A stretch of DNA of 64,000 nucleotides from Eledone cirrhosa (taxonomy: Eukaryota): the NCBI GenBank assembly GCA_964016885.1, contig OZ024740.1, forward strand, positions 100,316,001 through 100,380,000, in the 5' to 3' direction. Of the stretch, positions 15,945-64,000 are shown piece after piece. Each line of letters starts with the position of its first letter. The first letter of the stretch is position 1. The notes beneath the pieces are model-generated. The model saw only the letters and a list, made by a program, of their open reading frames with translations. It was not told the origin of the DNA and ran no database searches. Made by a program: the position numbers and the translations under genes.

Positions 15945-16550
15945 CTTCCAACCACCAGTCTAAACTTCCGATGAGAATAAATCTATATGGTTTGTGTGCT
16001 GACCTGACTTATATGTGATCAAATGAGTGGCTGACTTTCGGAAATTGGTGTTATAGAGATTCAAATCATTAGCATCACAGAGGTCCAGAAACATTGATCC
16101 CACCTCCTTTCTCCTGCCTAACCCAAAGCCTCCATTGAAGCCATCACAGCGTTGCCAAACATTTCCATAAAAATTGTGAGCTATGATTATGAATTCACCA
16201 ACACTCATTAAAACAGTCTGCATAAAGAACTCGTTGTCCTAGATTGTCGTGCATATTGAGATATAATTTTTTCTGTTGCTTATATGGGACGAGCTTAAGT
16301 TTAATGGTTCTATGATTAATCCTAACTACCTCAATTACTTTAACTTCATAATTTTCTGTTACTCACCCATGGCTATGGTTCACCCAGAAAATATGTAGCA
16401 CAGTGTTTTTCCCATGAATAGTTTGGCTAAGACTTATCTACATCTAGTCTCTTGTAAACAGCACACATCTACTTGCTTTTGATTTAGCGTCTCTACATTC
16501 AAACCCAAGTTAACTTCATCATGCCAACATTGATATAGGGACCTCTAAAA
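15945..16550 (-). mobile_element. RTE LINE APE-endonuclease fragment
   Basis: LDLCDANDLNLYNTNFRKSATHLITYKSG matches the APE domain of ORF 57429-60011. Confidence 0.8.
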
Positions 16551-16767
16551 TTTTGCAATTCACATATGAGAGATGTTGTTTCATGTAGAGATGCTGGTAT
16601 TGGTTTCATTCTTTTACGTCTTCAGTTACGGAAGTTGCGGGTGTTGTCCTGCCAAATTCAAAGAGCTCAGAAACCTGATGAAATACCTCCAGCCTCTCAG
16701 TTATCTCCCCACTCAAAAATCTATTACAAATAATTATCATTACTATGTTTACTAATTATTATGAATA

Positions 16768-16879
16768 TCAAATCCCGCCGAGGTTAACTTTGCCTTTCAT
16801 CCTTACGGGATCGATAAAATAAAGTACCAGTAATGCACTGGGTAATTGCTGGCCTTGTGCCAAAAGTAGAAACAATTAT
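16768..16879 (+). mobile_element. SINE family A, 5'-truncated
   Basis: Sequence match to the family body and tail. Confidence 0.85.
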
Positions 16880-17220
16880 GATTGTCAGATTTGATACTTT
16901 AGAACTAGAGGTGTTTGCATGGTCTAGCAAAGACTGGTGGTGGTGGTGTGTCTGGGAGGGAGGAAGGTGTCATAGGGTATCAGTGAGCAAGGCCATGCTT
17001 ATAAATTCTTTTGAAAAGTTAATTCATTAATAGAGTGTGCTAGATATAGGCATTGATGGTTCGTTTACTGAAGAAATTTACATGGCCCATGGAAATAAAT
17101 TGCACTTGGAGAAATGAGTTAGCAAAACATATTCGATACCACAGTAAACCAACAAACATATATATATATGTTAAATGGTGATGATGATGATATATATATT
17201 ATATATATATATATATATAT

Positions 17221-17327
17221 ATTAAAATAAGAGATTAAAGTTTAAGCAAAGAATCGCTGCTTTCACCCTTAACGGGATCATCTGAAATCAGCGATTCTTT
17301 GCTTAAACTTTAATCTGTTAGTTTAAT
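17221..17327. repeat. Foldback element with a hammerhead relic in the loop
   Basis: Arms of about 33 bp (AGATTAAAGTTTAAGCAAAGAATCGCTG); minus strand reads cAGATGA-tccc-gttaa-gggt-GAAA; adjacent to (TA)n. Confidence 0.7.
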
Positions 17328-17615
17328 AAATATTTGCTCTACAGTTATATATTTGATATTTATTTATCCTTATCGAGCCCTCTTTGAATTTTAGTCTTTA
17401 AATTTATTATTATTACTATATATATATATATATATATATATTATAAAGAATTAGTATATCTAGTAACATATATATACACAGATGCATACTTATGCTAGCA
17501 AATATATAGGTTTAGTCTTAATAACTTTGTGGTTCAATGCATGGGGATGCAGAACAATAATATGAGAGACGTAAAATAAGAAAATTATAAAATTAACTTA
17601 CTTACTAAAATTTCA

Positions 17616-17694
17616 CTCCAACTAATTAGTTTCTGAACGGGAATAAACATAGTTTCCGAAGAAACGTACGGAGAAGCCTTTCGTCATCAGGGAA
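17616..17694 (-). ncRNA. Type I hammerhead ribozyme motif (GUU site)
   Basis: Minus strand: ttcc-CTGATGA-cgaa...ttcg-GAAA-cta...tag-TT-ggag; stems I, II and III can all pair. Confidence 0.65.
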
Positions 17695-18059
17695 GTCTAT
17701 TCTCAGCTAAGTTTCCAGGCAATACGTGGACACAGGGAACTTATACAAAAATAATTCAGTGGATGGAAAAAAGCAAAGCGTGGACTAAATTCCAAGCCAT
17801 TGAAAAAATCACTGCCTACTGCGTCGGTGGCAAATTCAAAATAATCAGTCACGTGACATCGAGGTCAATCAGTGAAGAGTGGTTTGTTAAGAAGACAGCA
17901 GCCGGACCGTTACTATAGTAGCAGTTTTGACCAATTTTTGCTCGACAAAATAATTTGGAGATAATTATAAAGAATTAGTATATCTAGTAACATGTGTGTA
18001 AAACCATGTGCGTTAAACAGTCTTTTTAAATATTTTGAAGTGAAACATACCAATTTTTC

Positions 18060-18191
18060 TGGTGCTTGCTGAGGAGATAGAAATGCGGTATTCTTTCACT
18101 TTTTCATTTTTCGAAACTTATTTGGATTTTAGGGTTTAAACCTGTATACGGAACAGGTTTGATTTTGAAATTTAAATTTGTCCAAGCACCA
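18060..18191 (+). ncRNA. Type I hammerhead ribozyme, copy 1 (GUC site after 18182)
   Basis: 9-bp perfect stem I TGGTGCTTG/CAAGCACCA; CTGAGGA at 18069; G-C-closed stem II; GAAAC at 18113; long imperfect stem III capped by AAACCTGT/ACAGGTTT; GTC. Confidence 0.8.
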
Positions 18192-18607
18192 CGGCCATTT
18201 GCCAATATAATTTGTTTTATTGATTTATTATTTTAAATCGAGACAGGCAAACTGTATTATTATAATTAGTATTTTTCAATCTAGCTAACTTAGTCATTTA
18301 CAATACAAACATGGATATGTTGGTATTTGTGTTTATCAAATATATTAATTTATATTAACTTGTATTACACGGCTCAGAAATACTTCTTTCTTTGAGCTAT
18401 TTCATTGTAAAGGACTACCTGAGATTTGAACTCATTATTAATAGTATCACTGCTCCTTACGCAGAGCTAAATTTAACGCCATATAAACGGCTGTTATTTC
18501 TAGCAGCACGAGTATGCGGTAGTTAGACACTGGATAACCATGTGTGAAAAACGATGTGCGTTAAACAGTCTTTTTAAATATTTTGAAGTGAAACATACCA
18601 ATTTTTC

Positions 18608-18737
18608 TGGTGCTTGCTGAGGAGATTGAAATGCGGTATTCTTTCACTTTCATTTTTCGAAACTTATTTGGATTTTAAGGTTTAAACCAGTCTACAGAAC
18701 AGGTTTGATTTTGAAATTTAAATTTGTCCAAGCACCA
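18608..18737 (+). ncRNA. Type I hammerhead ribozyme, copy 2 (GUC site after 18728)
   Basis: Same architecture as copy 1; CTGAGGA at 18617, GAAAC at 18659. Confidence 0.8.
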
Positions 18738-18968
18738 CGGCCATTTGCCAATATACTTTGTTTTATTGATTTATTATTTTAAATCGAGACAGGCAAACTG
18801 TATTATTATAATTAGTATTTTTCAATCTAGCTAACTTAGTCATTTGCAATACAAACATGGATATGTTGGTATTTGTGTTTATCAAATATATTAATTTATA
18901 TTAACTTGTTTATATATATATATATAGAGATAAATATACACGGGTGTGTATGATTGTGTATAGAACAT

Positions 18969-19311
18969 TATATTAATAAAAGGACTTCCAACTTTGTCTG
19001 ATTTACTCGTTTTATTTACCATCCTTTAAAATTTATAATGGTATTAGAATGAAATAGTATGGTAGAATATTAAATGTTAAGTGTTAATTGAACAAGTACT
19101 TTCATGCTTTCGAAATTTCCAGGTTCATATTGTGTGGTGACAATTTTCCTGAAGATTGCAATGAACCTGAAGATTGCGAAAGCATGAAAGTACTTGTTCA
19201 ATTAACACTTAACATTTAATATTCTACCATACTATTTCATTCTAATACCATTATAAATTTTAAAGGATGGTAAATAAAACGAGTAAATCAGACAAAGTTG
19301 GAATTCCTTTT

Positions 19312-19320
<9 letters not shown>
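18969..19320. mobile_element. Foldback element (arms of about 160 bp), Penelope-like/retrozyme type
   Basis: Near-perfect inverted repeat with a spacer of about 30 bp; abuts (TA)n; hammerhead at the inner end of each arm. Confidence 0.75.
19162..19200 (+). ncRNA. Minimal type I hammerhead ribozyme
   Basis: tgaac-CTGAAGA-ttgc-gaaa-gcat-GAAA-gtac-TT-gttca; palindromic loop 3; the mirror copy at 19089-19127 has a mutated core. Confidence 0.75.
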
Positions 19321-19398
<78 letters not shown>

Positions 19399-20627
19399 TA
19401 TATTATATTATTTATTCATGTACATACACAGAACAAAAAGCACTACCTTTGTAGTGCTTTTTTGTTTTGTGTATAAACAAAAATAAATTATTTAATATAT
19501 CAGTTTTCACACCAGATTGAGAACTGTTTTCGTTTTTGCTGCTTCACACCCACCAATATTTTACTACATATATATATATATATATAAATATATATATATA
19601 TGTATACAGATAAGAGAATTCATAGGAGAGAGAGGGGAGAGAAGTGAGAGAGAGAGAGAGGAGAGAGAGGAGAGAGAAAGAGACAGAGGGAGACAGACAT
19701 ACAAAGAGGGGGTTAAAATTTAACACATAGCTTAAAAGATATTGAAATCTATATATGGTGTAAGTTGCTTCTGTTATAAACAAAATATTTTTTTGACAAA
19801 CAAGAGAGTCTCTACATCCTACTCTACTCAACCTATTTGAAATAGTAACTGGATTTCCCTGTCTTTCTATCAACAAAACAAATTTTCATGTATCAATATT
19901 ATTCAATCTTCTTTGTATTCATAAATTAATCTGAAAAAGATGCAGTACCTATAACCATTACATGTTCTCCCACACTGGTGAGAATGATGTTATGGATGTT
20001 ACATTTTAAACATTGGTAGGTCAGTTTAATTATAGTGGAACTATTGAAAAACATATCTAAATACTGTGAGTTTGGTTAACTTTTGTCAAAGTGGACAAAA
20101 TATGAAAGATGAATTGATATGAATAAAACTCATTATGGGCATATATCCTAAATCTCATTAATCAATAAAGTTGCAGAAGAGAAATGTGTGTGGGCTTCAC
20201 TAACCAACAATACATTTGATCAAGTTTTAAAGAAGTTGATGTTTCATGAAGTAGAGTCAAGAGATGCCGATAGTTATCACTGAGTCAAAACGAGAAAAAT
20301 TTTCTAATGCAAATTTTGTTGTAATAAACATTTACATGTTAAAAGAAAATCTTTTGTAGTTGGAAGATATGCAAATTGTGAAATAAAAATAACTATTTTG
20401 AATCAATTTGTAGCGTTAAAAAGTAAAGTTTGCAACATGTTGATGATAAGATTTCTGATATTGAAAGAAATCATCATCATCATCATCGTTTAACATCCAT
20501 CTTCCACACTAGCATTGGTAGGACGGACTGTCCCTTTGTGAGGGATTAGGCCGGGGGGACCTTGATTCGCTCACACAGAACTGATTTTGGCTTGGTTTCT
20601 ATGGCAGGATTCTCTTCCTAACGCCAA

Positions 20628-20962
20628 ATCATCATCATCATCATCATTTTACGTTTGCTTTTCCCTGCTTGCAAGGGTGGGACGGGAACTGATACTGGCT
20701 TGATTTCTACAGCTGGATGCCCTTCCTAACACCAACCTCATTTACAGTGAGTGCTGGGTGCTTTTTGCCGTGGCAACTATATAACCACTTTGCAGTGATG
20801 ATAGGGACCTCAGTCCTTACCATCTCATTTCTACAGCTGAGTAAATTGGAGCAATGTGAAATAAAGTGTCTTGCTCAAGGAAACAACACATCACCCGGTC
20901 TGAGAATTGAACTCACAACCTTTCGATTGCAAGGCCAATATTCTAACCACTAAGCCATGTGC
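20628..20962 (-). mobile_element. tRNA-derived SINE family B with RTE-derived tail
   Basis: Head GGCTTAGTGGTTAGA..GAGTTCAATTCTC; CORE/V-like CCTTGAGCAAGACACTT; tail shared with the LINE 3' UTR at 56593-56860; (GAT)n end. Confidence 0.85.
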
Positions 20963-21384
20963 AATGTACTTACATTTCAGGAAAAAGAGGAAAAAAAAAA
21001 TTAAATGTATAAGGGGATACCAGTAATGATATTAGTTTGATTCCAAGAAACTTTTAATTACTCAATGGTCAAGACAAACTTCACAAAAGCCATCTACAGC
21101 TTTACAAGTTTGATGGATTAATGTTTAGCAGCTCTGACTATTTTAAAAGTATTCTAAGAAACATAAATAAGATTTTGTTTCAGTGATATTCTATTTCTAA
21201 GGAGTGTATTTCACCAGATTGATATTTGGTCCAGAAAACATTAACTGTATCTGTTCCCTCTAATAAGAAAGAATAAGAATCATTGTCAAAATATTTTTAA
21301 ATGATCTAATGACTTTTGAAATATTACATAAATTTGATGCAATAGGCATTAGAGAATTTATAAACTTCTCTTGTAAAAAACAAG

Positions 21385-31196: not shown

Positions 31197-31725
<529 letters not shown>

Positions 31726-31865
31726 AATAATTAACTCCGTACTCGCACCGCCAACTACACAAACGAAGACGGGTGAGTTGCATTACGTTGAGTGCTCTCC
31801 ATAATATTACATCGAGATTAACCACACGGGATGACCAGTTCTATCCAGTGGTGAACCAACAAACC

Positions 31866-31919
<54 letters not shown>

Positions 31920-32045
31920 GTAGGAGGTGAGTTTTATTGTAGTACAATAAAGCAATGCAGATATCGGATAAGAAGCACTCTACAGTTTGTAGGACTGGAG
32001 TATACATAATATAAGATCAAAAGATGGTTAAAGGAGTTCCATGTA

Positions 32046-32112
32046 TTTTATTATGCGCATTTCAAAAACAAACATCATCATGCAATAATATTTGTGTTTT
32101 CATCAGATAAAA
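32046..32112 (-). ncRNA. Minimal type I hammerhead ribozyme (mirror copy)
   Basis: Reverse complement of 32244-32310. Confidence 0.8.
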
Positions 32113-32243
32113 CAGGAGAACATGATATGAAGGCTAAAAAAACACTTGTGGATAGTGCAGTTTTAAATCAACATATCATGTATGTTGATTTAAAACTGCA
32201 CTATCCACAAGTGTTTTTTTAGCCTTCATATCATGTTCTCCTG

Positions 32244-32310
32244 TTTTATCTGATGAAAACACAAATATTATTGCATGATGATGTTTGTTTTTGAAATGCG
32301 CATAATAAAA
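32244..32310 (+). ncRNA. Minimal type I hammerhead ribozyme
   Basis: ttttat-CTGATGA-(long stem II)-GAAA-tgcgca-TA-ataaaa; palindromic loop 3. Confidence 0.8.
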
Positions 32311-32342
32311 TACATGGAACTCCTTTAACCATCTTTTGATCT

Positions 32343-32417
<75 letters not shown>

Positions 32418-36760: not shown

Positions 36761-37070
36761 CATCATCATCATCATCATTTCATTTTACGTCCGCTTTTCC
36801 CTGCTTGCAAGGGTGGGACGGCAACTGATTCTGCCTTGATTTCTACAGCTGGATGCCCTTCCTAACACCAACCTCATTTACAGTGAGTGCTGGGTGCTTT
36901 TTTGCTGTAGCACCTGCACGACCACTTTGCATTTCTACAGCTGAGTAAACTGGAGCAATGTGAAATAAAGTCTCTTGCTCAAGGAAACAACACATCACCC
37001 AGTCTGAGAATTGAACTCACAACCTTTCGATTGCAAGGCCAATGCTCTAACCACTAAGCCATGTGCCTCC
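36761..37070 (-). mobile_element. SINE family B
   Basis: Head and tail match the family. Confidence 0.85.
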
Positions 37071-38895: not shown

Positions 38896-39183
38896 ACACA
38901 CACGCACACACACATACACAGAAAAATCACAAACCCTCCATCTCAATTCTACTTTTGAAAAGCACAAGAACTGTGAAACCCGTAAAGAAACCAAATAAAT
39001 ATTGTTAAAAAGACTCCAGTTGCATTTTCGATTTCATCTTTTTTCCTCATACTTTCACTCATGTAGGACATCTCGTTGTTTTTTTCATTTTGTAAAAAAA
39101 AACTCACTTTCTAACATATATATATATATAATATTATTCAAAATATTAACAAATGAAGATATTCATATAATCAAAATATATGC

Positions 39184-39243
39184 TTTATTATATATATTTC
39201 GAAGGTACTGTGTTGTTTTTTCAGTACGTCCTCGTCAGATAAA
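39184..39243 (-). ncRNA. Minimal type I hammerhead ribozyme
   Basis: Minus strand: tttat-CTGACGA-ggacgtactg...cagtaccttc-GAAA-tatata-TA-ataaa; G-C-closed stem II. Confidence 0.8.
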
Positions 39244-39343
39244 ATATATGATTTGTTATATGACCATACCTCTACAGAATATATATAATAAAGTATATAT
39301 TTTGATTATGTGAATATCTTCATTTGTTAATATTTTGAATAAT

Positions 39344-56575: not shown

Positions 56576-56592
56576 ATTACAGAAATTGAAGT

Positions 56593-59500
56593 CATCATCA
56601 TCATCATCATCACCGTTTTACGTCCGTTCTTCCACGCTAGCATGGGTTAGACGGGTTGTCCTGTTGTGGGCAGTGTCTGGTCGGCTGACCATGCCTTGCT
56701 CATACAGGAACTGATCTGGCTTGATTTCTACAGCTGGATGCCCTTCCTAACACCAACCTCATTTACAGTGAGTGCTGGGTGCTTTTTCGTGGCGCCTACA
56801 CGTCCACTTTACAGTGTGGGCTGGGTGCTTTTTTGCCGTGGCACCTCCACGACCACCTTGCGGTGGGGGGGGGGCATATTGTTTATATGCTTCAGCATGT
56901 ACCCATGGGAGGTCGGGTACCCTGTATTACTGCGTGACGCCAGAAGTCACGGTCGTGTGTCATTGACTTTGAGAGGTGTAGTTGGGTAAGGTCGGCTTTT
57001 ATCACCTCATCCCAAGTCATCTTGGGTCTCCCCACTCCGCGGTTTCCATCAACTTCTAGTGCTCTGCACCTTTTTATGCAGCTGTCATCCTTCATACGCA
57101 TCACATGTCCATACCAGCGTAACCGCCTCTCCTGCACGCAGCATTTGATTCCTCTTATGCTCAGTCTCTCTCTCAATTCATTTATGCTTTGTCGTTCACG
57201 TATATTACTGTTACACATCCATCGGAGCATGCAGGCTTCGTTTCTCTCTAATCTACGTAAGTCTTCCACCTTCAGCGCCCAGGTCTCACTACCATGCAAC
57301 ATCGCTGTTCGGATACACGCATCATACAGTCTGCCTTTCATTCTGAGGGAGAAGCCTTTTGCAGCTAGCAGTGGTAGTAGTTCCCTAAACTTCTTCCATC
57401 CCGTTCTTACCCTAGTTATTGTACTTTCTTAGCACCCACCTCCGTTGCTAATTCGGTCACCTAGGTAGCAGAAGCTGTCTACTGTTTCTACAGGGCCCTC
57501 CCAGAGATTGGTGGTACTTGTTTCCTGTGGCTGTTTGCTTGCTGTTTCAGCACAGCTGCTGCATGTGAATCCTACATTCTTAATTAAGCTTCCTGAGATC
57601 CCGCTACATCTCTTGTGTACCCATTGTTTGCATTTGGGGCAAAGAATGGAGTTCCTACCTACACCTTTCCTACATACTGAGCAAGGCCATTTCCCTGAGG
57701 GGATCTGGGTTCTGTTTTCTCGTCTACTTATAAGGACCTTAGTCTTTGTCATGTTGACTTTGAGGCCCTTTCTCTCTAGTCCCTGCTTCCAGGTTTGGAA
57801 TTTATTCTCTAGTTCTACCATAGATTCAGCTATGAGTGCGAGGTCATCAGCATACAGGAGTTCCCATGGGCATCCGGTCTTAAACTCCTCCGTTATTGCC
57901 TGCAGGACTATGATGAACAGGAGAGGGCTAAGAACAGAGCCCTGGTGGACCCCAACCTGTACGCTAAATTCCTCGCTATACTCATTGCCAATCCTAACTT
58001 TGCTGACTGCTCCCCTATACATGGCTTGTACCGCTTTCACAAGCCATTCATCTACTCCTAGTTTTCTAAGAGCCCACCAGATTACTGCACGTGGAACTCT
58101 GTCAAAGGCTTTCTCAAGGTCGACAAATGCCAAGTAGAGTGGCTTACTTTTAGCTAGGTACTTTTCCTGTAATTGCCTCACAAGGAAGAGCGCATCAGTG
58201 GTGCCTTTCCCTGGAACAAACCCAAATTGCATCTCGTCTATATTCACCCGGTCCCTAATCAGCTGTGCTATAACTCTTTCTGTTACTTTCATGACCTGGT
58301 CCATCAACTTTATACCTCTATAGTTTCCTCTATCTAGTGCATCGCCTTTACCTTTGTAGCAGTTGACAATGATGCTACTGCACCAATCTTTTGGTATGGC
58401 CCCCTCTAGTATTACCTGGTTAACGATACGTGTGGTTATAGTGTGACCTACAGACCCAGATGCCTTCAGCATCTCGGCAGCTATACCCGATGGACCGGTT
58501 GCCTTCCCTATCTTCATATCTCTGATTGCCTTACTTACTACGCTGCCGCTGACTTGTACTGCTGGTCCCTCTATAGGGTCTACGTGGGGTAGGGTCTCTT
58601 CTTCCCATGCATTCTCCTCATTTAGTAATCTATCATAATGACTCTTCCATGCATCTTTCTTCTCAGCACTTGTGAGGGCAAGCTCACCTTTATCATTCCG
58701 GATACACTTCTCTCCAATGACATCACAACTATCTCTGACACACTGCCTCGCAATCTTGAATACCTCCTGTTTCTGGTCCTCACGTTGTAAAACATGCTTG
58801 AATTTTCTATCCTCTGCTTCCCTCCTAGCTAAGTATACTTGTCGCCTAGCTTCCCTCTTGGTCTCTATGTAATGTACCCTGCTCCCCCCGTTCTTCCATT
58901 CTTTCCATGCCTGTCTCTTGGCCTTGACTGCTTCATCTACCTTATTGTTCCACCACCAAGTCACTCTCCTCCTGCTTGAGGTCTTACTCCAGCCACAAAC
59001 CTCATCCGTCGCCTCTAGTAAGTTATTTTTTAGGAACTCCCAGTTCTCTTCTACGTTAAATGTCTCTATCTGTTCTTCTTTACTGTCGTAGGCGTTGAGT
59101 AAAATATCTTTAAATCTGTTACTGGTTGAGGGGACTTTCAGCTTCCAGATCTTTCTTCTCCAGGTTGGCCTCTGTTTCAGGGCTCGTCTAGTTCTGACCG
59201 TGAGGTCGCTGACAACTAAGCTATGTTGGGATGTACATTCCTCACTAGGGAAGGCTTTTGTGTTTACGACCGTCCATCTGTCACGTCCTCTGATGAGGAT
59301 AAAATCTAACTGACTAGAGTGCTCCCCTGATCTATAGGTGATCAGGTGGTTGTCGGGTTTTTTAAAGTTTGTGTTACATATCGACATGTCATTGGCGTCG
59401 CAGAATTCTAGAAGTCTGAATCCTTCCTCATTCCTTGTGCCAACTCCTTGGCCTCCATGTACTCTATTGAAGCCGTCGCAGTGTTTACCTACGTGTCCGT

Positions 59501-60260
59501 TAAAATCTCCTGCAATGATTAGGAAGTCCTTGTCGTCTGTTAGAGCAGTAGTGTGTATTAGGGACTCGTAAAACCTATCCTTAAGTTCGTCTGGCAGCCC
59601 CGATTGGGGTGCGTAAGCTGATATTATTGTGGTAATTGTCTTATTCAGGACTAGTCTGAGTTTAATGATTCTTGCATTTACCCTGTACACTGAGATTACT
59701 TTATCTACCCACTTGTCAGCTAATAGTATACCTACACCACCCATCCCATCGTCATTTCCCACCCAGAAAAATTTGTAGCACTGGCTTTTTCCTACAAGGA
59801 CTCTAGCAGACCCTCCTCTCCATCTAGTCTCTTGCACACAGCATACATCAACTTCCTTTCGCTCTAGCATTTCTACGATTTCTCCTGCTCTTCCTTTCAT
59901 TGAGCCTACATTGATGGTACCAACTCGGAGTTTTGGGCATTTGTCGACACTCGTAGGGGAGGGTCTCTGGGTTGGCGCTTCACGTGGGTGCTTGGTAGCT
60001 CGCAGATTCATATTTCATCTATTGATTCAGAGTTGCTCGTGTATTCCCAGCTCATCCATCCCTAACGGTGGGAAAATTGAGGGCTAGAAGGACAGTGGTG
60101 GTGGGGTAATGGCAGGGTGTGTTGGGATGCGCCAGAGGAGGAGAGAGTTAGTTAGGCAGGTAGTAGCAGCAGCAGCAGTGGAAATGGCATGCTAGGTTTG
60201 ATTGGTCGAATAGACTATGGTGGTGTGTGGGGGTGGGGGGGGGAGGTAAATTGTGAGGTA
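56593..60260 (-). mobile_element. Near full-length RTE-clade LINE
   Basis: (GAT)n tail, 3' UTR, single long APE-RT ORF, C-rich 5' leader. Confidence 0.93.
56892..60011 (-). pseudogene. RTE LINE polyprotein: APE endonuclease, reverse transcriptase and PHD-like zinc finger; one in-frame TAA at 57429-57431
   Basis: GTINVG, CVQETRW, AYAPQ, GDFNGH, NYRGIKL, QFGF.PG, FVDLEKAFD, QGSVLSP, YADD, YLG. The frame continues past the stop into ORF 56892-57341 (HGSETW, RLRWYGHV), about 1039 codons in total. Confidence 0.93.
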
Positions 60261-63233
60261 GGAACTGAGGGTCGCATGGTAAATATCCAAGTTAATACTA
60301 CATCAGTAAAATTAACAATAATAACGTCATGAAAAAAGCTACTAAGAGAAACCCTCGAAAATTTATCGCTAATACAGCAGGGAAAATTTAACGCTAATAC
60401 AGCAGGGAACATCATAATATTAACGACATGAAAAAGCTACTAAGAGAAACCCTCGAAAATTTATCGCTAATACAGCAGGGAAAATTTAACGCTAATACAG
60501 CAGGGAACATCATAATATTAACGACATGAAAAAGCTACTAAGAGAAACCCTCGAAAATTTATCGCTAATACAGCAGGGAAAATTTAACGCTAATACAGCA
60601 GGGAACATCATAATATTAACGACATGAAAAAGCTACTAAGAGAAACCCTCGAAAATTTATCGCTAATACAGCAGGGAAAATTTAACGCTAATACAGCAGG
60701 GAACATCATAATATTAACGACATGAAAAAGCTACTAAGAGAAACCCTCGAAAATTTATCGCTAATACAGCAGGGAAAATTTAACGCTAATACAGCAGGGA
60801 ACATCATAATATTAACGACAATATGTAGGCTAAAATACCTTCGTAGATTAGGTGGATGGCTGGCTGGGAAAATTTGAATCAGCTCAGTGGTACATTTTAG
60901 CAGAGAAGAATGGCAAAGTGTCTTATCTCTTCAATATTTTCAGATTGAATGAATTAGGTTAAAGACAGGGTAGTAAGCCTTAAAGGAGTGCATAGAGGGG
61001 GGGGAGGGGGGTAGGAACTGAGGGTCGCATGGTAAATAACTGAGAGAGATACAATAGGATTAGAATACCGCATGGTAAATATCCAAGTTAATAAGTTAAT
61101 ACTACATCAGTAAAATTAACAATAATAACGTCATGAAAAAAGCTACTAAGAGAAACCCTCGAAAATTTATCGCTAATACAGCAGGGAAAATTTAACGCTA
61201 ATACAGCAGGGAACATCATAATATTAACGACATGAAAAAGCTACTAAGAGAAACCCTCGAAAATTTATCGCTAATACAGCAGGGAAAATTTAACGCTAAT
61301 ACAGCAGGGAACATCATAATATTAACGACATGAAAAAGCTACTAAGAGAAACCCTCGAAAATTTATCGCTAATACAGCAGGGAAAATTTAACGCTAATAC
61401 AGCAGGGAACATCATAATATTAACGACAATATGTAGGCTAAAATACCTTCGTAGATTAGGTGGATGGCTGGCTGGGAAAATTTGAATCAGCTCAGTGGTA
61501 CATTTTAGCAGAGAAGAATGGCAAAGTGTCTTATCTCTTCAATATTTTCAGATTGAATGAATTAGGTTAAAGACAGGGTAGTAAGCCTTAAAGAAGTGCA
61601 TAGAGGGGGGGGGGGGGTAGGAACTGAGGGTCGCATGGTAAATAACTGAGAGAGATACAATAGGATTAGAATACCGCATGGTAAATATCCAAGTTAATAA
61701 GTTAATACTACATCAGTAAAATTAACAATAATAACGTCATGAAAAAAGCTACTAAGAGAAACCCTCGAAAATTTATCGCTAATACAGCAGGGAAAATTTA
61801 ACGCTAATACAGCAGGGAACATCATAATATTAACGACATGAAAAAGCTACTAAGAGAAACCCTCGAAAATTTATCGCTAATACAGCAGGGAAAATTTAAC
61901 GCTAATACAGCAGGGAACATCATAATATTAACGACATGAAAAAGCTACTAAGAGAAACCCTCGAAAATTTATCGCTAATACAGCAGGGAAAATTTAACGC
62001 TAATACAGCAGGGAACATCATAATATTAACGACATGAAAAAGCTACTAAGAGAAACCCTCGAAAATTTATCGCTAATACAGCAGGGAAAATTTAACGCTA
62101 ATACAGCAGGGAACATCATAATATTAACGACAATATGTAGGCTAAAATACCTTCGTAGATTAGGTGGATGGCTGGCTGAGAAAATTTGAATCAGCTCAGT
62201 GGTACATTTTAGCAGAGAAGAATGGCAAAGTGTCTTATCTCTTCAATATTTTCAGATTGAATGAATTAGGTTAAAGACAGGGTAGTAAGCCTTAAAGAAG
62301 TGCATAGAGGGGGGGGGGGGGGGTAGGAACTGAGGGTCGCATGGTAAATAACTGAGAGAGATACAATAGGATTAGAATACCGCATGGTAAATATCCAAGT
62401 TAATAAGTTAATACTACATCAGTAAAATTAACAATAATAACGTCATGAAAAAAGCTACTAAGAGAAACCCTCGAAAATTTATCGCTAATACAGCAGGGAA
62501 AATTTAACGCTAATACAGCAGGGAACATCATAATATTAACGACATGAAAAAGCTACTAAGAGAAACCCTCGAAAATTTATCGCTAATACAGCAGGGAAAA
62601 TTTAACGCTAATACAGCAGGGAACATCATAATATTAACGACATGAAAAAGCTACTAAGAGAAACCCTCGAAAATTTATCGCTAATACAGCAGGGAAAATT
62701 TAACGCTAATACAGCAGGGAACATCATAATATTAACGACAATATGTAGGCTAAAATACCTTCGTAGATTAGGTGGATGGCTGGCTGGGAAAATTTGAATC
62801 AGCTCAGTGGTACATTTTAGCAGAGAAGAATGGCAAAGTGTCTTATCTCTTCAATATTTTCAGATTGAATGAATTAGGTTAAAGACAGGGTAGTAAGCCT
62901 TAAAGAAGTGCATAGAGGGGGGGGGGTAGGAACTGAGGGTCGCATGGTAAATAACTGAGAGAGATACAATAGGATTAGAATACCGCATGGTAAATATCCA
63001 AGTTAATAAGTTAATACTACATCAGTAAAATTAACAATAATAACGTCATGAAAAAAGCTACTAAGAGAAACCCTCGAAAATTTATCGCTAATACAGCAGG
63101 GAAAATTTAACGCTAATACAGCAGGGAACATCATAATATTAACGACATGAAAAAGCTACTAAGAGAAACCCTCGAAAATTTATCGCTAATACAGCAGGGA
63201 AAATTTAACGCTAATACAGCAGGGAACATCATA
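60257..63233. repeat. Higher-order tandem array of 98-bp monomers in blocks of 5, 3, 4, 3 and 2, separated by a linker of about 310 bp
   Basis: Monomer starts at 60328, 60427, 60525, 60623, 60721 and so on; GTAGGAACTGAGG recurs at about 60258, 61011, 61617, 62323, 62926. Confidence 0.95.
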
Positions 63234-64000
63234 AGTGCAATACATAAAATATAAAAACCGTCGATGTTAACCAGTTTATGATATTATTGTTGCTAGCAGA
63301 TGTTTAAAATGTAGAATATTTAGGAACTATTCATTTAAATAAAGTTAACTTAAAGTTTTAGTTATCAAGTTTAATCCAGGATAGGCTTCTGCCTGTGTGA
63401 ATCAGATAATGTGCATTTGCAAGAAATTTCATTATATTGGACCTGCAATGAACTAATTATCTAATTTCGTAGAAAGATTTCAATGCTACTCTTAATTATC
63501 TGACGCGTAATTTCTTAATTGGAACTATTTGCCTATACTAATGGTTAGAAAGAATGTATTGTAAATACTTGTCTCAAACATTCCAGTTGATGGACTAAAT
63601 GAAGACATGATTGTTGGCGTAGCTCCTTCCGCTGCAACATTAGATTTACACAAAAGACATTCAATATTTTTGACTCCTAGTCTGTTTAACTAGCCCTATA
63701 ATTGAATAAATTCTAGTCATGCAATTGAGACACAAAATCCAGAGTATATATATTTCTGTTGTCAGGGAAAAGTGTAAACTCACCTATGTCATTGGTGCTC
63801 TCCTATCATTGATCTTGTCCACATGGGATATATCTGTGAGAGCCCTACCTCTGGCCAGAAAACTTAGCAGTTCAAACCACAAACACTTCTGGCAAGTCAC
63901 AATTTCCTTGCATTTTCCAAGCATCTGATCATTAATCACTGGCTCTATAACTTCTAATGGTGTCATAGAGGAGCCTTGATCAACATTCAAACCCTTCCCT

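Follow-up and report, generated by a model that had tools for sequence, protein, structure and literature searches.

The insertion found at positions 17991-18909 of the window (the whole stretch of 64,000 nt of Eledone cirrhosa DNA that was analysed) is very probably one copy of a multi-copy 546-nt unit with Penelope-type ends, likely non-autonomous and copied by the RT/GIY-YIG enzyme of a coding Penelope-like element (PLE). A sequence-only reading of the same DNA had presented it as a retrozyme; there is indeed a mobile, non-coding element whose tandem type I hammerheads match the animal (non-LTR) kind, but its layout is a Penelope-type partial tandem and not the one then claimed. The unit belongs to subfamily A1 of a family here called A, and the features of the locus are the following.

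17417-17440, unstranded: (AT)n run at the left junction, beyond the long end of family B
17441-17993, minus strand: arm of family B, whose unrelated non-coding unit of 524 nt makes 1.06 turns here, joined to A head-to-head, with B's long end
17621-17697, minus strand: putative family B hammerhead-like motif with a CUGAUGA core, a GUU site and a short bulged stem I (approximate boundaries)
17991-18909, plus strand: family A1 arm, 1.68 turns, 5'-truncated at ~17991, with the short 3' end of the family (917 nt long, from unit position 357 to 181)
18060-18191, plus strand: type I hammerhead motif, copy 1, with predicted cleavage after 18182
18183-18728, plus strand: predicted 546-nt monomer, 31% GC, longest ATG-started ORF of 30 aa, circular fold z = -5.25 (15 shuffles)
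18364-18447, plus strand: 'tail' between the two fixed 3' ends, short at ~18363-18365 (equivalent to 18909) and long at 18447, presumably two RT start sites
18479-18505, plus strand: block with a TATA-like motif, conserved in A1, A2 and A3, candidate promoter, sole copy at the locus
18608-18737, plus strand: type I hammerhead motif, copy 2, with predicted cleavage after 18728
18910-18925, unstranded: (AT)n run at the 3' junction, probable target site
18925-19315, unstranded: family D, a separate insertion, head-to-head pLTR pair of a coding PLE with a minimal hammerhead

The two direct repeats that had been noticed at the locus were recovered at 17991-18363 and 18539-18909 in a 373-nt alignment with 97.05% identity, the copies differing by nine substitutions over 371 compared positions and one 2-nt indel. 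The 175 nt between them (18364-18538) had been taken for unique DNA, a claim that did not hold when a probe covering 18250-18447 yielded 2137 candidates, of which the 40 that were scored were 97-100% identical. As this segment is multi-copy and part of the tandem unit, it is the remainder of the 546-nt unit, and the locus is a partial tandem of 1.68 turns of a circularly permuted, non-coding unit. The proposed tandem layout is thus right in having repeats with hammerheads 546 nt apart, but not in having an LTR-like pair around unique DNA. The apparent sparing of the core and stem I by the differences between the copies is no evidence of constraint, since 10 differences would miss these 33 bases with a chance of ~0.40. 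An assembly artefact, which the first reading had named as a way to be wrong, is unlikely because the copies carry separate differences (7/9 are private) and because the junction from one unit to the next is found again at other loci, in arrays of up to four units.

Hammerheads were located by a motif scan of both strands of the window. Both copies have the perfect 9-bp stem I first described (18060-18068 with 18183-18191, and 18608-18616 with 18729-18737), CUGAGGA at 18069 and 18617, the G10.1-C11.1 bases, GAAAC and GUC, and the predicted cut sites after 18182 and 18728 leave the GUC sites 546 nt apart. The core elements CUGANGA, GAAA and NUH follow in the order of a type I hammerhead, with helix I open and helix III closed, and the 9-bp helix I pairs with a probability of ~1 in the isolated motif. 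Stem III, given earlier as imperfect and about 28 bp long, was predicted with 27 and 26 bp. The minimal hammerheads reported nearby are also real (32250-32304 on the plus strand, 32052-32106 and 39189-39238 on the minus strand, and one at ~19161-19198).

The G-C-closed stem II was confirmed for its bases but not for its pairing, as the predicted probability of the 10.1-11.1 pair was 0.0. In the constrained active fold this stem consisted of 2 bp, a 2x2 loop and then 6 bp, and the active fold lay 3.7 and 4.0 kcal/mol above the minimum-energy fold for the two copies at the locus, core bases being mispaired in the predicted fold with the U-rich 3' side of helix II. Stem II was weak in every subfamily, with probabilities of 0.00-0.06 and active folds 1.5-6.6 kcal/mol above the minimum. 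According to these predictions stem II, and not stem III, is the weak helix, and for this reason the long stem III is no guarantee of the monomeric activity that had been expected from it. Rfam gave 0 hammerhead matches at the gathering score and 0 at E<=10 in 16000-21000, where its models may reject long helices, and a metagenome scan with the stem III pattern gave 0 matches.

Two sister subfamilies, A2 (531-534 nt) and A3 (559-560 nt), were found beside GIY-YIG matches. A1, A2 and A3 are mutually 67-79% identical, and all of them are non-coding with a period of 531-560 nt. Across the three, 8/31 pairs of the ribozyme change on both sides and 98.8% of cells pair, compared to 19-54% in slid controls of the same alignment, which consists of 13 chosen representatives of three lineages and thus holds few independent events. 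The pairs that change comprise five of eight in stem I, C3-G8 (to U3-A8) and two of the three at the base of helix II; two further helix I swaps were detected inside A3. U3-A8 is a natural variant reported for PLE ribozymes (PMC4209133). The closing G-C of helix II is invariant and two of its three basal pairs covary, yet its predicted pairing probability is 0.00-0.06. The compensatory changes between subfamilies indicate that the ribozyme fold is under selection. In single genomic copies the core showed 1.1-1.6% divergence vs. 1.8-2.6% elsewhere, a comparison affected by query bias; as single copies decay with little sparing of the core, selection would act on source elements and not on the copy at the locus.

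The search for copies was carried out over the whole genome, of 3.0 Gb. An exact 40-mer over the cut site gave at least 191 matches dispersed over the chromosomes, compared to 0 for the reversed control, and the ribozyme probe gave 1259 candidates, of which the 40 scored were 96-100% identical. With 191 exact 40-mers at a mean divergence of ~2%, some 400-450 ribozyme-bearing A1 copies would be expected genome-wide. The count and arrangement of copies, proposed at the outset as a check, revealed hundreds of scattered copies in partial tandems with Penelope-type ends.

To define these ends, loci were mapped onto the circular 546-nt unit (44 A1 loci, from 50 fetched and 6 duplicates removed). The A1 arms end at unit position 183 (window 18365, equivalent to 18909-18911) or 265 (window 18447), followed by (AT)n, so that there are two fixed 3' ends 82 nt apart; 71/76 arms stop at one of them, and an AT run lies behind 68 of the 71 typed arms. 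By contrast to these fixed ends, the 5' ends are variable, and the copies are 5'-truncated and comprise 1-4 units. Among 96 distinct insertions with the exact 40-mer (115 loci before overlap removal) there were 37 simple head-to-head pairs, 26 complex arrangements, 19 single arms with (AT)n on the 5' side and 14 with different flanks. An arm with two complete ribozymes, as at the locus, occurred in 11/96, and one insertion had four units. When both ends of a head-to-head A1 pair could be typed, 51/52 pairs were long plus short and one was long plus long (104 distinct insertions, variant ends allowed), and the same rule was followed by 14/14 pairs in A2, 11/11 in A3 and 12/12 in B (37/37 together).

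According to PMC8557442, PLEs are marked by truncation at the 5' end, partial tandems, an inverted copy next to the first, a tail on one side and (TA)n targets. With purified PLE protein, AT-rich DNA is cut on both strands and both are extended, synthesis starting at two internal RNA sites whose spacing gives the tail; ribozyme cleavage was dispensable for insertion and needed protein, as the PLE protein assists its ribozyme (PMC11167929). In the A1 copies the partial tandem with an inverted 5' arm, the one-sided tail and the (TA)n preference of a PLE derivative were all found and, judged from the junctions, the A1 ends, the (AT)n runs and the long/short inverted pairs together are a PLE signature.

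A local tandem duplication, satellite DNA or an assembly error, in each case with a ribozyme motif that is a relic or due to chance, is a very improbable account of the same locus. Simple repeats are abundant there, individual copies decay by ~1-2% with little core sparing and no read or contig spans the locus (contigs of three runs from one sample cover all 30 bins), all of which would suit it; the 191 dispersed 40-mers against 0 for the reversed control, the fixed ends, the covariation of the stems and the private differences between the two copies would not.

Regarding its own coding and promoter capacity, no RT/GIY-YIG ORF was found within the 546-nt unit, which rules out an autonomous EN+ PLE, and the A1 unit, non-coding and with 31% GC, falls under the limit of 45-50% GC of animal non-LTR retrozymes. 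Between the long end and the ribozyme, A1, A2 and A3 all keep the TATA-like block, and at the locus its single copy sits between the two ribozymes. As the locus begins downstream of the first such block, its own promoter could probably not span both ribozymes, and this A1 copy would depend on transcription from outside for the release of a monomer. A tRNA-derived, Pol III-driven SINE with a hammerhead, moved by LINE machinery (for which we take Schistosoma SM-alpha as the type), was also considered, and we give it hardly any credence. A B-box-like motif with a T-arm-like hairpin does exist on the minus strand at ~18420-18435, but it is antisense to the ribozyme, polymorphic in A1 (at 18424) and absent from A2 and A3, Rfam detected no tRNA there and the ends are not LINE-like. 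The antisense B box, being confined to A1, was thus rejected as a Pol III promoter, and no A and B boxes conserved on the sense strand of the family were found. Elsewhere in the window, at 37000-37063 (minus strand), an abundant SINE-like repeat has a tRNA-like head, scored by Rfam at 29.9 bits.

Coding PLEs with RT and GIY-YIG domains and long open frames exist in the genome. The search for GIY-YIG gave 10,596 candidates, of which 150 were scored, and RT plus GIY-YIG matches were obtained in 4/4 ORFs tested, with the RT under the curated cut-off in three of these; the best named homolog of one coding element was from Octopus vulgaris (69%). An A-like pLTR behind the ORF was found in 0/146 coding-PLE loci examined, a small sample of the families present, with tens of thousands of candidates. 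One coding family, P029, has a 1246-aa frame, a pLTR with a minimal hammerhead and an inverted tailed arm, is joined to A1 once (locus L298) and is linked by BLASTP (E 7e-15) to a Pfam-confirmed RT plus GIY-YIG ORF. The proteins of P029 and of locus L084 gave no Pfam match, and blastn of the A units against the P029 pLTR gave no match. P029 is only a candidate as the mobiliser of A1. A coding PLE with a 1246-aa open frame, also without Pfam match at E<=0.1, lies at L361:1792-5529 (minus strand), and its asparagine-rich stretch recalls the N-rich inserts described for rotifer Penelopes (PMC3846280).

Two same-sense chimeras join non-coding arms to coding PLEs, that of A1 with P029 at L298 and that at L084/L191, in which a long arm of B is fused through a 4-nt microhomology to the endonuclease region of a coding PLE whose own 3' end is missing (the L084 protein is one that we take to be Neptune-like). 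A template switch to a coding PLE RNA was considered for L298 and L084 but could not be distinguished from a later insertion: since the coding parts carry more private changes than the non-coding arms (~3% vs. 1.3% in L298, 1.4% vs. 0.2% in L084), insertion at a later time, with deletion of the target, would explain them equally well.

The copies could instead be pLTR fragments, that is the 3' end, of an unsampled coding PLE, the 546-nt tandem being a secondary deletion form, which we consider improbable. Most PLE insertions are 5'-truncated pLTR pieces (PMC8557442, PMC4209133), the adjoining family D is such a case and the 146 loci were drawn from tens of thousands of candidates. However, arms longer than one pLTR enter the next 546-nt unit and not an ORF, and as all three diverged subfamilies, 67-79% identical, keep the non-coding period of 531-560 nt, units of this type would have evolved for long without an ORF.

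Family D (18925-19315), with one long and one short end and a minimal CUGAAGA hammerhead, sits in the (AT)n at the 3' end of A and shows this architecture once more within the window. PLE insertions accumulate in such (AT)n runs. Other families arranged head-to-head and bearing minimal hammerheads are located at 31970-32355 (hammerheads at 32250, plus strand, and 32106, minus strand) and 39000-39340 (at 39238, minus strand), and the first of these, family C, is also joined to an A2 arm in L128/L132. The palindromic, (AT)n-flanked high-copy repeats at 17237-17440 and 31313-31729 resemble further PLE-type families.

The insertion continues for 550 nt to the left of the A arm as an inverted family B arm, which had been missed in the sequence-only reading. 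The B unit has no similarity to family A, and its probe gave 2204 candidates, of which 40 were scored; the family has two ends ~118 nt apart and reaches 2.9 units. At the locus the long arm of B meets the short arm of A head-to-head, the two overlapping by 3 nt without any (AT)n between them, and private divergence is similar in both (5/550 in B, 12/919 in A). All six typed mixed junctions with a two-ended partner were long plus short (L001, L006, L010, L132, L168 and L298; typed by eye), the chance of which under a 50:50 expectation is ~0.016. At L087 a B arm is joined head-to-head to a candidate two-sided family (K) with a hammerhead-like core.

Three other mixed junctions have non-PLE partners, and one of these partners, which matches 39 other copies exactly, probably postdates the A arm. 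Two of these partners, presumably a very young Helitron-like element and a SINE-like element judging from their end motifs, are not two-ended families, so that the short-plus-long rule could not be extended to their junctions, and the third is an RTE-like LINE fragment at L284. The Helitron-like one, at L367-L391, is a very young element of ~1.5 kb with a 3' hairpin, a CTAG end and internal 93-nt tandem repeats, for which 40/40 scored matches were identical over 209 nt. Within the window, an 861-aa frame with endonuclease, RT and PHD-finger matches was found at 57429-60014 (minus strand), with its (GAT)n-tailed 3' region at 56592-57423; a 98.7% identical 3' piece abuts the A1 arm in L284. Just upstream of this LINE frame, 60317-63234 holds a nested tandem array of 98-nt units (97-99% identical), grouped with a period of ~610-710 nt.

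The non-PLE partners and the unequal ages within the coding-PLE chimeras imply that microhomology deletions also make such joints, and the A|B join may be a deletion product. Still, we lean slightly towards the A and B arms at the locus having been co-integrated, with the second arm coming from a different RNA. Head-to-head PLE palindromes have been explained by self-priming on an antisense template (PMC3846280); mixed-family pairs, if real, need two templates, unlike fold-back self-priming.

The template of these insertions was approached through the alleles of the units. Within tandem arms 13 differences were counted, compared to 149.7 expected from independent draws (348 diagnostic comparisons, 41 arms, 22 sites), and between inverted arms there were 10 compared to 129.5 (302 comparisons). 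All the units of 2-4-unit arrays share one haplotype, even though the subfamilies differ at 22 diagnostic sites. Because units in one arm share subfamily alleles far above chance, the 546-nt monomer is the unit of inheritance, in agreement with the monomer first proposed. Such sharing fits a circle, but would fit equally homogeneous multimers or end-jumping.

The cut site was read through in 49/61 arms, corresponding to ~80% of cDNAs. In the 96 insertions, 13 of the 5' ends lay at +1 to +25 past the cut site, including +1, +2 and +2, compared to 4.2 expected (P 0.0005); the 25-nt window was chosen after the first data, and the 60 new loci alone gave 6 vs. 3.0 (P = 0.087). The count was 4 vs. 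1.5 expected in A2, and no excess was seen in A3 (2 vs. 1.5). The excess is a hint of in vivo cleavage or of RT stalling at helix I, and is not specific to cleavage, as stalling at this stem predicts the same.

In a strict retrozyme cycle, tandem transcripts would be self-cleaved efficiently and an abundant 546-nt circle would be the obligatory template for rolling reverse transcription, to which we assign a little under an even chance; this is compatible with the explanation preferred here as to the enzyme and differs from it as to the template. It would account for the single haplotype of each 2-4-unit array in spite of 22 diagnostic sites between subfamilies, for the passage of the cut site in 49/61 arms and for a monomer circle that folds better than shuffles (z -5.25, 15 shuffles), and circles have been reported for coral, mussel and axolotl retrozymes (PMC7229834). 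It is less easily reconciled with the weakness of the predicted stem II, with two whole ribozymes in one arm in just 11/96 insertions or with the 8/9 Xenopus dimers reported as uncleaved in vitro (10.64898/2026.07.22.740005), and uncleaved multimers or template jumps would leave the same DNA pattern.

The explanation preferred here, copying by the enzyme of a coding PLE, would proceed as follows. The PLE enzyme would nick the (AT)n target and begin cDNA at internal sites of the RNA that lie 183 nt and 265 nt downstream of the ribozyme cut, each target strand using one of the two. Reverse transcription would usually pass straight through the ribozyme cut site, the ribozyme likely cleaving a fraction of the transcripts, and the 5' ends of the arms would be joined by microhomology. 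The template most probably consisted of identical units. A circle made by ligation of the monomer is quite conceivable, if not quite an even bet, and an uncleaved homogeneous multimer or end-jumping between monomers has slightly better than even prospects.

A bolder proposal, which we put forward tentatively and think rather unlikely, is that a clade of 520-560-nt ribozyme-bearing RNA circles parasitises PLE enzymes in the octopod genome. A dimer of the enzyme would prime both (AT)n strands on two RNAs, always with one short and one long start site, would roll round the circles to give multimers and could load two unrelated RNAs, as in A|B. If true, it would prove at the level of junctions that PLE machinery moves animal retrozymes, and it would replace fold-back self-priming, as proposed in PMC3846280, as the source of the head-to-head inversions of PLEs.

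When compared with known systems, the A family is closest to two groups. With the animal non-LTR retrozymes (PMC7229834; 10.64898/2026.07.22.740005) it shares non-coding, low-GC tandem units with a type I hammerhead each, in dimers to multimers, and the co-occurrence with PLEs. Its units of 531-560 nt are above the 150-450 nt of the first of these sources and inside the 51-972 nt of the second, and its helix III has 26-27 bp, compared to 1-2 bp. Going by the descriptions of retrozymes cited here, it is set apart by its dispersed partial tandems, two fixed ends, (AT)n targets and long plus short inverted pairs. With EN+ PLEs such as Poseidon of Anolis (PMC11167929; PMC8557442; PMC3846280) it shares the partial tandem pLTR layout, 5' truncation, an inverted 5' arm, a one-sided tail between two end points, AT-rich targets and a hammerhead in the repeat; it differs from those described there in having no RT/GIY-YIG ORF, a tail of 82 nt, longer than the 30-40 nt cited, and a full-size instead of a minimal hammerhead.

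The type I hammerheads with a large helix III of fungal and protist PLEs (PMC4209133) have in common with the A family the long helix III and, apparently, no recognisable contact between helices I and II, and the U3-A8 core variant of A3 is reported in the same source for Schistosoma PLEs. Such motifs are reported there to cleave as monomers, that of Serpula among them, whereas the A family is animal, in a non-coding unit and with a helix II predicted to be unstable. Chlamys elements such as MRC1 are likewise non-autonomous PLE derivatives with pLTRs and multicopy head-to-tail insertions, but they are green algal and, as described in PMC8557442, generally similar at the 3' end to autonomous partners, unlike the A family; the same account gives N-terminal EN+ PLEs as lacking canonical hammerheads. 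Plant LTR retrozymes also have two hammerheads several hundred nt apart in direct repeats (PMC7229834; 10.64898/2026.07.22.740005), but are described with type III ribozymes, true LTRs, PBS, PPT and 4-bp target duplications, and a plant-type LTR retrozyme is ruled out here by the type I topology and by the spacer lying inside a permuted tandem unit.

Taken together, these junctions and folds suggest that the A family behaves like a non-autonomous PLE of the animal non-LTR-retrozyme type, joined at the locus to a second, unrelated family. This class of element is already known, and its mobility through PLEs, by way of circles, has already been proposed from co-occurrence and pLTR similarity (PMC7229834; 10.64898/2026.07.22.740005). 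No pLTR homology to a coding PLE was found for the A family in the 146 loci. In the papers searched on cephalopod or octopus hammerheads and on chimeric PLE inversions neither the A family nor mixed-family inverted pairs were found, and the family may already be listed in a repeat library. Three things are new relative to the descriptions cited: an animal unit whose ribozyme has a long helix III, a PLE signature read at the junctions, and inversions that mix families. The last of these, if confirmed, would bear on the origin of PLE inversions and tails. The A family shows the PLE integration signature at its junctions, names two likely RT start sites to the base, includes natural variants of the ribozyme with covarying bases in the catalytic core and occurs in the same genome as long-frame coding PLEs, all of which make the relation between retrozymes and PLEs testable with the published in vitro PLE assay.
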